This document shows, piece after piece, positions 45,362 to 49,675 of a stretch of 59,025 nucleotides of DNA (position 1 is the stretch's first letter; every line of letters starts with the position of its first letter). Where the stretch lies: positions 1 to 59,025 of the forward strand of contig DATLDP010000033.1 in assembly GCA_035525825.1 (NCBI GenBank), in the 5' to 3' direction. The DNA comes from Candidatus Limnocylindria bacterium. Its GTDB lineage: Bacteria; Chloroflexota; Limnocylindria; Limnocylindrales; CSP1-4. A program made the position numbers and the translations under genes. The notes under the pieces were generated by a model. The model worked only from the letters and a program-made list of their open reading frames with translations, was not told where the DNA came from and searched no databases.

Positions 45362-45883
45362 TCAGCCCGAAGCGCGGGTGGCCCGCTCCTCGCCGAGCGC
45401 CGCCAGCACCTCCGCGGGGTGGCCGTCGGCCTTGACGTTCGGCCAGGTCCGGGCGATCCGCCCGTCGGGATCGATGAGGAAGGTCGAGCGGATGATGCCC
45501 ATGTACGACTTCCCGAGCATCGTCTTCTCGCCCCAGGCGCCGTAGCGCGCGATGACCTCGTGCTCGGGGTCGGAGAGCAGGGTGAACGGCAGGTCGAACT
45601 TCTCGCGGAACCGACGGTGGCTCGCGGCGTTGTCCTTGCTCACGCCCCAGACGTCCGCGTCGGTCGCGGCGTAGTCGCTGTCGAGGTCGCGGAACTGGCA
45701 GGCCTCGGTGTTGCAGCCGGGCGTGTCGTCCCTGGGGTAGAAGTACAGGACGGTCCAGCGGCCCTTCTGGTCCATGAGGTTATGGACTGCGCCGGTCTCG
45801 TCCGGGAGGGTCATGTCCGGGGCCACCTGGCCGACCTCGGGGACGACGCGCTGCGGCGGCGTCTCGGTCGCGGGCGCGTTCAT
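45362..45883 (-). CDS. bcp: Peroxiredoxin Q / bacterioferritin comigratory protein
   Basis: YFYPRDDTPGCNTEACQFRD; RSTFLIDPDG. Confidence 0.93.
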   Translation of the reverse strand: MNAPATETPPQRVVPEVGQVAPDMTLPDETGAVHNLMDQKGRWTVLYFYPRDDTPGCNTEACQFRDLDSDYAATDADVWGVSKDNAASHRRFREKFDLPFTLLSDPEHEVIARYGAWGEKTMLGKSYMGIIRSTFLIDPDGRIARTWPNVKADGHPAEVLAALGEERATRASG

Positions 45884-46575
45884 GGCCGGACTGTAGCAGG
45901 GGTTTCGATCAGGAGGAGCCGGCCTGATTCGAGCGTGACGGTGGCAATTGGGCCGGTTCGGACGTTCGAGACACCCCGGGTGCGGCCCAGCACAAGGGGC
46001 TCTCCGACGAGGGGGAAGCGGAGGCCGGCGGTCGTCACGCCCTCTGCGGTCTGGCCGATGGGGATGATCGAGACGAGATCGCCCTCGCGGCCCTCGAGCT
46101 GTCGCGTCGCCGGGCCGTGATCCTCGGGCGCGGTGAGCAGCGAGCACCTGGCCGCCTGGTCGTCGAACAGCCAGGCGGGCCGGCCGCCCAGCGCCGGATT
46201 CGCCAGCAGCCCGAGATTCGCCACGGCGTGATCGACGCGCGGACCGCCGAGGGCCCCGAGCAGCACGATCGAGTCCGCACCGGCCCCGAGCGCCGTCATG
46301 AGCGCGAGCTCCGCATCGGACTCGTCCTTCTCGGCGGCGACGCGCTCGATGGCGACGCCGGTCGCGGCCAGCGCCGCGAGATCGGCCGGGTCGATCGAAT
46401 CGCCATCGCCCACCCATCGATCGATTCGGAGCTTGAGGACCAGGGCGTGGCGCGCGCCGCCGTCCGCCGCGATCACGAGCTCGATGCCCGCCGACCAGTC
46501 CGGCCACGCCTCGTCCAGCTGCGACCGCGTGGGCACGGCGCCGTCCGCCAGGATCACGGCCCGGCGATCGGGCAT
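45880..46575 (-). CDS. thiN: Thiamine pyrophosphokinase
   Basis: IAADGGA, GDGDS, KDESDAELA, LGGPRVDH, GLRFPL, GVSN. Confidence 0.9.
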   Translation of the reverse strand: MPDRRAVILADGAVPTRSQLDEAWPDWSAGIELVIAADGGARHALVLKLRIDRWVGDGDSIDPADLAALAATGVAIERVAAEKDESDAELALMTALGAGADSIVLLGALGGPRVDHAVANLGLLANPALGGRPAWLFDDQAARCSLLTAPEDHGPATRQLEGREGDLVSIIPIGQTAEGVTTAGLRFPLVGEPLVLGRTRGVSNVRTGPIATVTLESGRLLLIETPATVRP

Positions 46576-46577
46576 CG

Positions 46578-47279
46578 TCAGGCGGCCGGGCCGCGCGAAT
46601 CGGCCGGATCCCGCGACTCGCCGGCGGCCGTCGACGGCACGCCCTCGCCGAGCAGGTCGGCGACGAACGTCGCCACGCCCGGATAGACGACGGCCGCACC
46701 GGCCTCGAAGAGCACCTCGCGGGAGCTGATGGCGGACTCGATCCCGACGCCGATGGCGCCCACCGCCTTCGCCATCCGCATGTCGTCGGGCACGTCGCCG
46801 ACGTAGCGCGCGGTGGCGACCCGTTCGGACCGGTCGAGCTCCCGGAGCACCCGGAGCAGTGGGTCGGGATGGGGCTTTGATGCGATGTCGTCGTTGCCGA
46901 AGACCCGGACCGGGATGAGGTCCGAGAGCCCGTTGCTGTCGAGCTGATTCTCGACTACATCCCGGTGGCCCGCGGTCACGAGCCCGAGGACGAAGCCCGC
47001 GGCGGACAGCCGCTCCAGCGCCTCGGCGACCCCCGGCAGCAGGCCGGCATCGACGGTCTCGCGATACAGCTCCAGCCAGCGAATTCCGGCGGCGTCGAGG
47101 TGCTCGGGCGGGATCCCGAGGCGCTGGTACATCACCCGCCAGTCGGGGATGTAGGCCGAGCGATAGCGGGCATCGTCGAACGGCAGGCCGTACTCCGCGA
47201 GGACCTTGAGGTTCGCCTCGTAGATCGCCGGAAGCGAGTCGAAGAGCGTGCCGTCCCAGTCGAAGACGATGGCGTCCAT
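46578..47279 (-). CDS. HAD-superfamily hydrolase (phosphoglycolate phosphatase-like)
   Basis: IVFDWDGTLFDS, KPHPDP, YVGDVPDD. Confidence 0.9.
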   Translation of the reverse strand: MDAIVFDWDGTLFDSLPAIYEANLKVLAEYGLPFDDARYRSAYIPDWRVMYQRLGIPPEHLDAAGIRWLELYRETVDAGLLPGVAEALERLSAAGFVLGLVTAGHRDVVENQLDSNGLSDLIPVRVFGNDDIASKPHPDPLLRVLRELDRSERVATARYVGDVPDDMRMAKAVGAIGVGIESAISSREVLFEAGAAVVYPGVATFVADLLGEGVPSTAAGESRDPADSRGPAA

Positions 47280-47876: not shown

Positions 47877-48449
47877 GTGACCGCCGAGCCTCGCGACGCG
47901 ACCATCGCCTATCCCGGCGGGCTTCGAGCGCGCTGGCGCTGGGGCGGCTCCGGTCAGGCTGCGGCCGTGTTCGCGCTTTCCGAGGTCGGCGGCAATCTCC
48001 TCGATCTCGGGCCGGAGGTCTCCCCGGCGCCGGACGAGCTGTGTCGCGCGGAGCTCCGGGTGGACGGGCCCGGCGGCGCGTGGGCGGTTCGGCTGGCATC
48101 AACGCTCAACGACGAGCCGACGGCGCAGCTCTGGGACACCGCGGGTCAGCTCGTCGTGAAGTACGGCTTCCACACCTTCGGGCTCGATGCCCGATCCGGC
48201 GCGCTGCGCTGGTCGCATCGGTCGGCAACGCCGGTGCTCGCGGTCTTCGCTTCCTCAAGGCTCCAGCACGTGATCATCCAGGCGGAGCTGGAGACGTTCG
48301 CCGTCGAGGCCGACGGTGGCGTGGCCTGGCGGATCGCGCATTCGGACGTGGTCACGGAGGCGGCGATGGTCGGCGGGCGCCTCGTCCTCACCGCGTACGG
48401 TGGCGGCGTCAACGCGGTCGACCCGGCCACGGGCCGCGGCGAGGGCTGA
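47877..48449 (+). CDS. Hypothetical protein with PQQ/BamB-like propeller repeats
   Basis: GLDARSGALRW, AVEADGGVAW, AVDPATG. Confidence 0.7.
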   Translation: MTAEPRDATIAYPGGLRARWRWGGSGQAAAVFALSEVGGNLLDLGPEVSPAPDELCRAELRVDGPGGAWAVRLASTLNDEPTAQLWDTAGQLVVKYGFHTFGLDARSGALRWSHRSATPVLAVFASSRLQHVIIQAELETFAVEADGGVAWRIAHSDVVTEAAMVGGRLVLTAYGGGVNAVDPATGRGEG

Positions 48450-48576
48450 CCGACCGAACCGAGGGCGGCCGTGCGACTCGGCGCGCGACCCGGCGCGGGG
48501 CTGGCGCGCAGCCTCACGATGTGGATGCGTCGTGGACAAGCCACCCGTCCCGGGTGAATCTCGTGGACAGGTGGCA

Positions 48577-48605
48577 TTGACCCGCCCGGTCGACCCACCT
48601 AATGT
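48577..48605 (+). promoter_or_regulatory. Near-consensus sigma70/sigmaA promoter
   Basis: TTGACC-N17-TAATGT in a 300-bp intergenic gap; the next CDS has its own -10 element 130 nt downstream. Confidence 0.7.
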
Positions 48606-48610
48606 CTGAA

Positions 48611-48695
48611 CCAGCCCGGAGGGGCTGAACGACACTAACGGCGGCGATCGCATCAACGCCCACGTGTTGCGTAGGTTCCTCCGGGCCCTTTGATT
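48611..48695 (+). ncRNA. Candidate small structured non-coding RNA (family not recognised)
   Basis: Begins just after the promoter. GCCCGGAGG/CCUCCGGGC closing stem, inner CGACAC/GUGUUG and GGCG/CGCC stems, then CUUUGAUU. Confidence 0.45.
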
Positions 48696-48748
48696 CCCCG
48701 GGATCGCCGCGGCCTGGACGGCACTGCCGCGCCACCTATGATTCCGGC

Positions 48749-49675
48749 GTGGCTCCCCTGATCCTTGCTGCCGCGGGCGGGCTCGCCCTCGGCATCGCGT
48801 CCGCGATCCTGCGCGGCTTCGGCCCGCGCTACCGCGTCGGCCGGCTGCTCGCGGTCGTACCGAGGGTGACCGTGGCCGAGGCGCTCGAGCTCGCGAACGC
48901 CGGCGAGCCGCGCTACGTCCGGATCGAGGGCCGCATCGACAGCGACGCCGAGTTCGAGGACCAGGACCACCGGCCCCTCGTCTATCGCCGGACGTCCATG
49001 CACTGGCGGCGCTCGCCGGGCCGGGGCGGGTGGACGCCCCTGGAGGACCCGACGATCGAGTCGATGGGGTTCACCCTGAACGAAGGCCTTGAGGACATCG
49101 CGATCGACGCCCAGGCGCTCGGGGACGGGCTGGTCGTCATCGCCCGGGAGAGCACGGGGCTCGTCCGCGATCTCGGCGAGCGTGCCCCGGAGGGCGTCCC
49201 GGCGGACGCCGAGCTGCGGCTCCGGATCGAGTACCTCTCGAGCATCGATCACGCCACCGTGCTCGGCGTCCCGGCTCGCGGCGCCGATGGCGTCCCCGCG
49301 ATGGGTCCCGGCCTCGGCCGCCCGCTGATCGTGACCACGCTCGAGAACGAGGAGGCGATGCGGGTGCTGACGGGTGGCGCGATCGGGCGCTCCCGGGCCG
49401 CGGTGGCGGGCCTCGCAATCGGCGCCATCCTCATCGCTGCGGCGGCGATCTGGTTCCTTCTCGAGGCGCTGCTCGGCGGCGGCGTCGCGATCGCGCTGGC
49501 GGCCACGCCGGAGCCGACGGTCCGGCCGGGCTCGGACATTCGCGGCGGTGGCGCCGCAGGCTTCCTCGGCACGCCCCTGCTCGCCGTCGGGGCCGTCCTG
49601 GCCATCGGGGTCATCTCCGTCGTGGCCACCCTCGCCTACGTCCGGCTGACCGGCGGGCCGCGCGGAGGTCGCTGA
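48749..49675 (+). CDS. Hypothetical membrane protein with GIDE-like soluble domain
   Basis: N-terminal TM; 'YVRIEGRI...PLVYRR...FTLNEG..IAID' beta-rich region; two C-terminal TM helices. Confidence 0.65.
   Translation: MAPLILAAAGGLALGIASAILRGFGPRYRVGRLLAVVPRVTVAEALELANAGEPRYVRIEGRIDSDAEFEDQDHRPLVYRRTSMHWRRSPGRGGWTPLEDPTIESMGFTLNEGLEDIAIDAQALGDGLVVIARESTGLVRDLGERAPEGVPADAELRLRIEYLSSIDHATVLGVPARGADGVPAMGPGLGRPLIVTTLENEEAMRVLTGGAIGRSRAAVAGLAIGAILIAAAAIWFLLEALLGGGVAIALAATPEPTVRPGSDIRGGGAAGFLGTPLLAVGAVLAIGVISVVATLAYVRLTGGPRGGR

Follow-up and report, generated by a model that had tools for sequence, protein, structure and literature searches.

A conserved family of clamped small RNA genes with predicted DnaA-type boxes at their promoters in uncultured Limnocylindria

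Introduction

DnaA is known to regulate transcription of a few protein genes, and its target promoters include those of sda and dnaA in Bacillus subtilis and of nrdAB and dnaA in Escherichia coli. The locus described here belongs to a member of the Chloroflexota and was found in a window of 59,025 nucleotides, this being the whole stretch of DNA that was analyzed. As at the sda, dnaA and nrdAB promoters, several boxes lie just upstream of or overlap a sigma-70-type promoter, and the putative DnaA boxes have the same sequence as the oriC boxes of the organism itself. The predicted product differs, being a non-coding hairpin RNA and not a protein. Furthermore, the module is repeated at one to five RNA genes per genome, and its spacing of 11 + 31 bp is the family's own.

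Sets of sibling small RNAs under one regulator are known from other bacteria, with Qrr1-5 controlled by LuxO, OmrA and OmrB by OmpR, and PrrF1 and PrrF2 by Fur. The Limnocylindria RNAs are like Qrr, OmrA/OmrB and PrrF in forming paralogous genes that share a functional segment, their ends and upstream regulator sites. The latter, however, are Hfq-dependent antisense RNAs of Proteobacteria, whereas the hosts of the Limnocylindria RNA lack Hfq and the sites upstream of the gene are of DnaA type. The conserved segment also differs in nature, being a structured module in the Limnocylindria RNA and a single-stranded seed in Qrr, Omr and PrrF.

A tie between a non-coding RNA and the replication cycle has a precedent in CcnA of Caulobacter crescentus, a base-pairing RNA that is controlled by CtrA and encoded close to the origin. 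CcnA is reported to modulate two master regulators, CtrA and GcrA (PMC8959179). A comparable tie between RNA synthesis and a master regulator of the replication cycle is proposed below for the Limnocylindria RNA, which bears no sequence or structural similarity to CcnA and would answer to a different regulator. The 6C RNA of Actinobacteria (RF01066) is likewise a small, GC-rich, lineage-specific hairpin from high-GC hosts without Hfq. Unlike 6C, which consists of two hairpins with C-rich loops, the Limnocylindria RNA has no such loops, occurs in another phylum and gives no match to the Rfam model at E <= 10.

Searches of Rfam and of the literature found neither the Limnocylindria RNA nor any family of small RNAs driven by DnaA boxes. 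The RNA family missing from Rfam has more than 100 members with clear covariation, which are otherwise unannotated in hundreds of metagenome-assembled genomes. If the regulatory reading developed below holds, an abundant class of uncultured soil bacteria would link the status of chromosome replication to RNA-based regulation. Boxes, promoter and clamped hairpin form a compact, portable cassette (~180 bp), and since it is short and well defined, the idea can be approached without culturing the organism.

Locus organization and core promoter

The promoter and RNA element are contained in an intergenic gap of 300 bp, between genes at 47877-48449 and 48749-49675 (Table 1). Judged from its sequence, the segment 48520-48697 is probably one self-contained transcription unit, composed of three DnaA-type boxes, a sigma-70-type promoter and an RNA gene of ~80 nt.

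Table 1. Coordinates of the predicted features at the small RNA locus, numbered from the first nucleotide of the window.
Feature	Sequence	Position	Strand	Remarks
Box 1	TGTGGATGC	48520-48528	+	Reverse complement of TTATCCACA-type DnaA box; weakest of the three
Box 2	CGTGGACAA	48531-48539	+	DnaA-box-like; 11 bp from box 1
Box 3	CGTGGACAG	48562-48570	+	DnaA-box-like; ends 6 bp before the -35 hexamer
-35 hexamer	TTGACC	48577-48582	+	Conserved; pairwise identity 0.91 (genus)
-10 hexamer	TAATGT	48600-48605	+	Pairwise identity 0.92 (genus); TAGCGT in most relatives
Small RNA		48612-48697	+	~80-86 nt; 5' end inferred from the -10 hexamer, 3' end from the U-rich tail
Clamp helix, 5' strand	GCCCGGAGGGGCU	48614-48626	+	Pairs with 48674-48686, 13 bp
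Rod interior		48630-48669	+	Length and sequence variable across the RNA family
Helix 2		48630-48635 with 48664-48669	+	Within the rod interior
Helix 3		48640-48643 with 48657-48660	+	Many standard pair types: GC, CG, AU, UG, UA
Apical module	GC-GAU-CGC-AUC-AA	48644-48656	+	Best-conserved interior part; family consensus GA-GAU-YRC-AUC-AA
Clamp helix, 3' strand	AGGUUCCUCCGGGC	48674-48686	+	With the tail, resembles an intrinsic terminator
U-rich tail	CCUUUGAUUCC	48687-48697	+	Directly 3' of the clamp
Promoter and start of the neighboring gene	TATGAT-N6-GTG	48737-48751	+	Outside the RNA; leaderless mRNA layout

The original prediction placed a sigma70-like promoter, TTGACC-N17-TAATGT, ahead of the element, and this promoter is indeed present in the window and conserved across the copies. 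Its hexamers are 17 nt apart in the window copy and 17 or 18 nt apart across 93 distinct copies. TTGACC is the commonest version of the -35 hexamer (33 of 82 copies), the others reading TTGnnn or TAGnnn. The -10 hexamer conforms to TAnnnT in 82 of 93 copies, and 7-8 nt separate its end from the first clamp pair; overall, the promoter is kept in 82-93 of the 93 copies. An E. coli-style promoter scanner omitted TTGACC-N17-TAATGT while listing the downstream TATGAT, because the -10 hexamer agrees with TATAAT at only three of six positions.

RNA fold and covariation

The forward strand of 48611-48700 folds with a free energy of -41.8 kcal/mol, well below that of shuffled sequences (z = -3.45), and the fold of the reverse strand is no better than chance (z = -1.39 versus shuffled sequence). 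The rod with pairing ends and a U-rich run that had been drawn from the single sequence is confirmed in its general form, with the correction that the closing stem comprises 13 bp and not 9 bp. This GC-rich clamp would zip the two ends of the RNA together and, with the U-rich tail, would also terminate transcription. A terminator scan flags 48674-48687 together with the tail CTTTGATTCC; the tail is plainer in the second family, for example CAUUUUUGUGCC. At the other end of the rod, the apical module combines a 2x2 internal loop, G(A/C)/AA across the family, with a mini-helix of 3 bp that is capped by a triloop.

Among 30 copies from the genus, every cell of the clamp is paired. Two clamp positions are invariant G.U pairs and several variants are U.G or G.U, and because these would become A.C mismatches on the other strand, the RNA is read from the forward strand; an RNA from the reverse strand, with its z of -1.39, was rejected. 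Pairing in the 30 copies reaches 98.6%, compared with 35-48% in slid controls. In the alignment of 93 class-wide copies (A3), which was fitted to the structure of the covariance model so that pair counts are inflated and the structure favored, 98.8% of the clamp cells are paired and double changes occur at 10 of its 13 pairs. For the structure as a whole, and subject to the same bias, 96% of cells are paired versus 83% in shuffles, double changes are found at 22 of 26 pairs, and the observed score is reached by none of 500 shuffles. The proposed check for covariation in related genomes thus comes out in support of the rod. These compensatory and wobble changes, in excess of those in the controls, point to an evolutionarily conserved secondary structure.

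The elements that stay constant across the class are the clamp (CCCGRAGGRG/CCUYCGGG), the U-rich tail and the apical module, G(A/C)-GAU-YRC-AUC-AA. The helices between clamp and apical module vary in both length and sequence, with compensation. Within the module, 91 of 93 copies have GAU/AUC as the mini-helix, and the remaining two, from one genus, have GGC/GCC, in which both sides are changed. One lineage (L059) carries a lengthened GAUC-GCAA-GAUC in place of mini-helix and loop. The loop that caps the mini-helix is variable and reads YRC, GCAA or UCCG.

Some members of the second family are longer. In L201, L202 and L204 there are RNAs of ~111 nt in which two apical modules (GAGAUUGCAUCAA), 32 nt apart, are enclosed by one clamp. 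Other members of ~112 nt contain one module and an unrelated extra hairpin, and are predicted to form a three-way junction.

Conservation and distribution

A DNA search of relatives recovered the stretch from 34 of the 36 genomes in the window's genus, and the predicted transcription start coincides almost exactly with the beginning of the best-conserved part. Pairwise identity within the genus is 0.94 for the RNA and 0.78-0.86 for the boxes, as against 0.42-0.48 for the spacers and 0.58 for the first 100 nt of the next gene. This restriction of conservation to the promoter elements and the RNA supports a stand-alone small RNA.

The covariance model R1, built from the genus, has matches in 181 of 301 genomes of the class, and a broader model, R2, matches all 24 sampled genomes of the window's family (f1) and all 16 of the second family (f4). 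The window copy itself scores 107 bits against R1 and 93 against R2. No R2 match was obtained in ~355 other Chloroflexota genomes, nor in a small-genome family of the same order. In all, two families of the class bear the RNA and two lack it. Copy number is one to four per genome in f1 and three to five in f4. The carriers are Chloroflexota, mostly labeled "Candidatus Limnocylindria" or "Limnocylindrales". Six RNA-bearing contigs (L087, L114, L115, L121, L130 and L131), one of them 954 kb long, bear the labels Steroidobacteraceae, Verrucomicrobiia, Zixibacteria or Gaiellaceae; these may be mis-binned or mislabeled Limnocylindria.

The window's own genome, in an assembly that is 80% complete, contains only two clamp-bearing units. 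The second is a diverged copy on the reverse strand at C14:6421-6512, with the clamp GCCCGAAGGGG...GGUCGCUUCGGGC and the loop GAGAUCACAUCAA. Upstream of it are five DnaA-type boxes, three of which are in the opposite orientation (TTATCCAC, TTTCCACA and TTGTCCAA). In two other genomes, orthologues of the C14 copy precede a purine-nucleoside-phosphorylase-like gene.

The original prediction could not assign the element to a known RNA family, and the Rfam scan gives no match for it either. With all 4227 models of Rfam 15 at the gathering score, the whole window yields only two tRNAs, which lie elsewhere, and at E <= 10 the sole match within 48400-48800 is a chance hit to mir-744 of 14 bits. Nine loci with divergent relatives return only TPP riboswitches at the gathering score, again elsewhere in the loci. 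Taken from these sequence comparisons, the predicted RNAs are a lineage-specific, multi-copy family of uncultured soil Limnocylindria that is absent from Rfam. As for the TPP riboswitches, they occur at L055:5157-5266 and L059:5494-5601, in each case between a HAD-like gene and a homologue of the window gene 45880-46575. In the window, the HAD-like gene and 45880-46575 abut or overlap at 46575-46580, and no TPP riboswitch is detected there at threshold.

Independence from neighboring genes

The gene downstream of the RNA (48749-49675) encodes a 308-aa membrane protein with no Pfam hit. The sequence TATGAT (48737-48742) followed by 6 nt and GTG at 48749 is conserved in the genus alignment, and the RNA is separated from this -10 element by 0 to ~130 nt. 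Such an arrangement is the layout of a leaderless mRNA, so the downstream gene has its own start, as had been proposed from the -10 element at 48737 in the window sequence.

Gene order around the RNA is kept only within f1, where it runs YbaK-like, beta-propeller, RNA, membrane protein and GGDEF. One genus member (L029) has no downstream gene, and in two other genera one or both of the flanking genes are missing. The f4 copies lie 3' of a gene for an ECF transporter or have a convergent gene downstream, while the second paralog precedes a nucleoside-phosphorylase-like gene. Because the neighbors differ between families and paralogs, the RNA appears to be an independent gene and not a dedicated leader. 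The locus thus has the predicted features of a bacterial small RNA gene that stands alone: a promoter and a terminator that belong to it and are conserved independently of its neighbors. The central claim of the original prediction, that of a small RNA with its own promoter and no protein gene, is borne out by the conservation footprint, the covariation, the varied neighborhoods and the lack of an Rfam match.

That prediction also envisaged a switch, in which a 5' hairpin, CAGCCC-GGAG-GGGCUG, and the closing stem are mutually exclusive. The hairpin can be formed in the window sequence. Across the copies, its pairing amounts to 73.8% of cells versus 75.2% in shuffled alignments, 498 of 500 shuffles being at least as high. 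Where its positions change (G to U at clamp position 5 and G to A at position 14), the compensation is found in the long clamp and not in the short hairpin, and the switch idea was therefore dropped.

These results bear directly on the reading of the element as a cis-acting leader or attenuator, in which a riboswitch-like choice between 5' hairpin and clamp would control the downstream membrane protein and GGDEF genes. The downstream gene is syntenic throughout f1, the hairpin resembles a terminator, and the alternative 5' hairpin can be drawn in the single sequence of the window. Nevertheless, that hairpin gains no support from covariation (73.8% paired), and the downstream gene has a conserved leaderless promoter at a distance of 0-130 nt from the RNA. 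Furthermore, the f4 copies and the paralogs precede unrelated or convergent genes, and L029 has no downstream gene to control. The leader reading is largely refuted by these observations and we consider it very improbable.

The element could instead be a small protein gene, or a mere terminator of the upstream gene beside a chance promoter. Two forward-strand frames are open through the core in the window sequence, and the hairpin lies 160 nt past the stop codon of the upstream gene. Coding potential was rejected, since one frame is interrupted by TGA in four genus members and the others have no start codon; moreover, the substitutions are compensatory and not three-periodic. Against both versions, conservation ends at the end of the stem, and promoter and boxes are kept in more than 90 copies in differing contexts. 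We regard either version as extremely improbable.

DnaA-type boxes and the clade origin region

Ahead of the -35 hexamer, the locus contains three GTGGAY(AA) boxes in direct orientation, which are absent from the original prediction and occupy fixed positions in about 90% of the 93 copies. Measured from the clamp, box 1 lies at about -94 in 85 of 93 copies, with the consensus TGTGGA(C/T), which is perfect in 63 of 93. Box 2 lies at about -82 in 89 of 93 and has a perfect GTGGA in 90 of 93, with the consensus GTGGA(T/C)AA. The position of box 3 is about -51 in 79 of 93 copies, and its GTGGA is perfect in 84 of 93. Within the genus, pairwise identity is 0.78 for boxes 1 and 2 and 0.86 for box 3, versus 0.31-0.48 in the flanks. 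All divergent copies and paralogs that were inspected keep the boxes at the same spacing. The box centers are 11 bp (boxes 1 and 2) and 31 bp (boxes 2 and 3) apart, which would place the boxes on one face of the helix.

The consensus shared by boxes 2 and 3, GTGGA(T/C)AA, is the complement of TTATCCAC and of the DnaA box TT(A/G)TCCAC. The motif agrees with the consensus for DnaA boxes (TTATCCACA or TTGTCCACA) as well as with the clade's own oriC boxes. For the window's genome, the relevant region is the spacer between dnaA and dnaN (C79:7350-7762), which contains eight GTGGAY boxes beside the most AT-rich stretch of the region and is likely to be oriC. Corresponding spacers from six genomes in all (the window's own and five others of the class) hold four to eight GTGGAY boxes by an AT-rich stretch. 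Since the same motif fills these spacers, GTGGAY can be taken as the origin box of the clade. At C79, the AT-rich run contains (CAT)n-like repeats (TCATCACCATCATCATCAT), and rpmH is divergent from dnaA.

The RNA locus itself is neither within oriC nor adjoining dnaA. In four complete genomes it lies 330-740 kb from dnaA, which indicates no positional tie to the origin. Genome-wide, GTGGAYAA is not enriched, with 45 occurrences found versus 46 expected. The evidence from the boxes is thus one of position and conservation and not of count, and another factor of similar specificity is possible. We treat the boxes as predicted DnaA sites that would control the promoter, DnaA binding being surmised from motif identity only.

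The RNA may be real and the boxes not regulatory. They might be bound by another protein of similar specificity, or they might constitute a datA- or DARS-like site that titrates or recharges DnaA and happens to be transcribed. The lack of over-representation of GTGGAYAA in the genome fits such a reading, as does the C14 copy with its five boxes in both orientations. In addition, clusters of three DnaA boxes form the core of the DARS sites of E. coli. Arguing the other way, 75 of 81 copies have the last box 5-6 bp from the -35 hexamer, all three boxes stay in helical phase with the promoter, and every paralog retains both boxes and RNA. The box-promoter module is also found almost only at RNA genes: the combination of box, promoter and further upstream boxes occurs at just three sites in the 2.3-Mb, 80%-complete assembly, and two of these are the RNA copies. 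On balance, boxes without a regulatory role seem to us quite unlikely.

Proposed function of the RNA

The reading that we favor, at a probability of roughly 60%, is that of a DnaA-controlled, trans-acting small RNA of which the apical module is the working part. DnaA on the three phased boxes would set the rate of transcription, by activation or by repression, and the level of the RNA would then report the state of DnaA or of replication initiation. The stable hairpin RNA would act in trans through its apical module.

How the module would act can be framed in two ways. Within the trans-acting reading, we put a protein-binding (titrating) unit at a little below even odds and a short antisense seed at a slightly lower chance, protein binding being somewhat more likely. 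The lean toward protein binding comes from the doubling of the apical module inside one clamp in some members. In addition, the mini-helix is kept by compensatory change while its capping loop is free, which suggests that shape matters.

A classical antisense small RNA would use the loop GAGAUYRCAUCAA to pair, through a seed of 6-8 nt, with mRNAs such as those of cell-cycle genes. This alternative is a variant of the favored explanation and differs from it only in the RNA's mode of action. The sequence of the loop is nearly invariant across the class, and a mini-helix as constant in sequence as this one (91 of 93) would also suit a short seed. Multi-copy sibling small RNAs with a common seed exist, the Qrr RNAs being an example. 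The two central bases of the loop vary freely, however, and the mini-helix is compensated in two lineages, which speaks for shape over sequence. No target with at least 11 complementary bases emerged from nine genomes, and none stands out in the window's own genome. When the complement of the 13-nt loop was sought in nine second-family genomes with at most one mismatch, all matches were copies of the RNA gene and none was an mRNA. The complement of the 14-mer loop in the window's genome gave only chance-level matches inside GC-rich coding sequence. A further point against antisense action is the absence of Hfq. We therefore view the classical antisense reading as possible, if improbable.

Candidate partners were also considered. 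A gene for Hfq (PF17209) is found in none of 11 genomes, and Hfq was rejected as a partner on this account. CsrA (PF02599) was encoded in only one of the same number. The Limnocylindria RNAs do resemble CsrB/CsrC and RsmX/Y/Z in having a modular short hairpin motif, sometimes repeated, and several RNA genes per genome. Unlike those RNAs, they have no GGA loop motifs and at most two modules each, and with CsrA absent from 10 of 11 genomes, both CsrA as a partner and a Csr/Rsm-type sponge were dismissed. Mimicry of an anticodon loop (A-U-NRC-A-U) was discarded as well, because two lineages carry a GCAA or UCCG loop on a longer stem.

A more specific version of the DnaA-controlled, trans-acting reading is that Limnocylindria wire their clamped small RNAs to DnaA, such that box occupancy sets the level of RNA and the apical module, present once or twice in each RNA, titrates an RNA-binding protein, or DnaA itself. 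We hold this version only tentatively and think it the less probable outcome. Were it true, replication initiation would be coupled to post-transcriptional control, or fed back on by it, and the family would represent the first DnaA-gated non-coding RNA regulon.

The third box-promoter module of the assembly is located at C76 ~10437, on the reverse strand, and consists of GTGGATAA, 5 nt, TTGACT, 18 nt and CAACAT, with two further boxes upstream. Downstream of it come a leader of ~220 nt, GC-rich and strongly folding, and then a metallophosphoesterase gene (MRIAVLSDIHSN...). By its sequence, this module may be another DnaA-box-driven RNA or leader.
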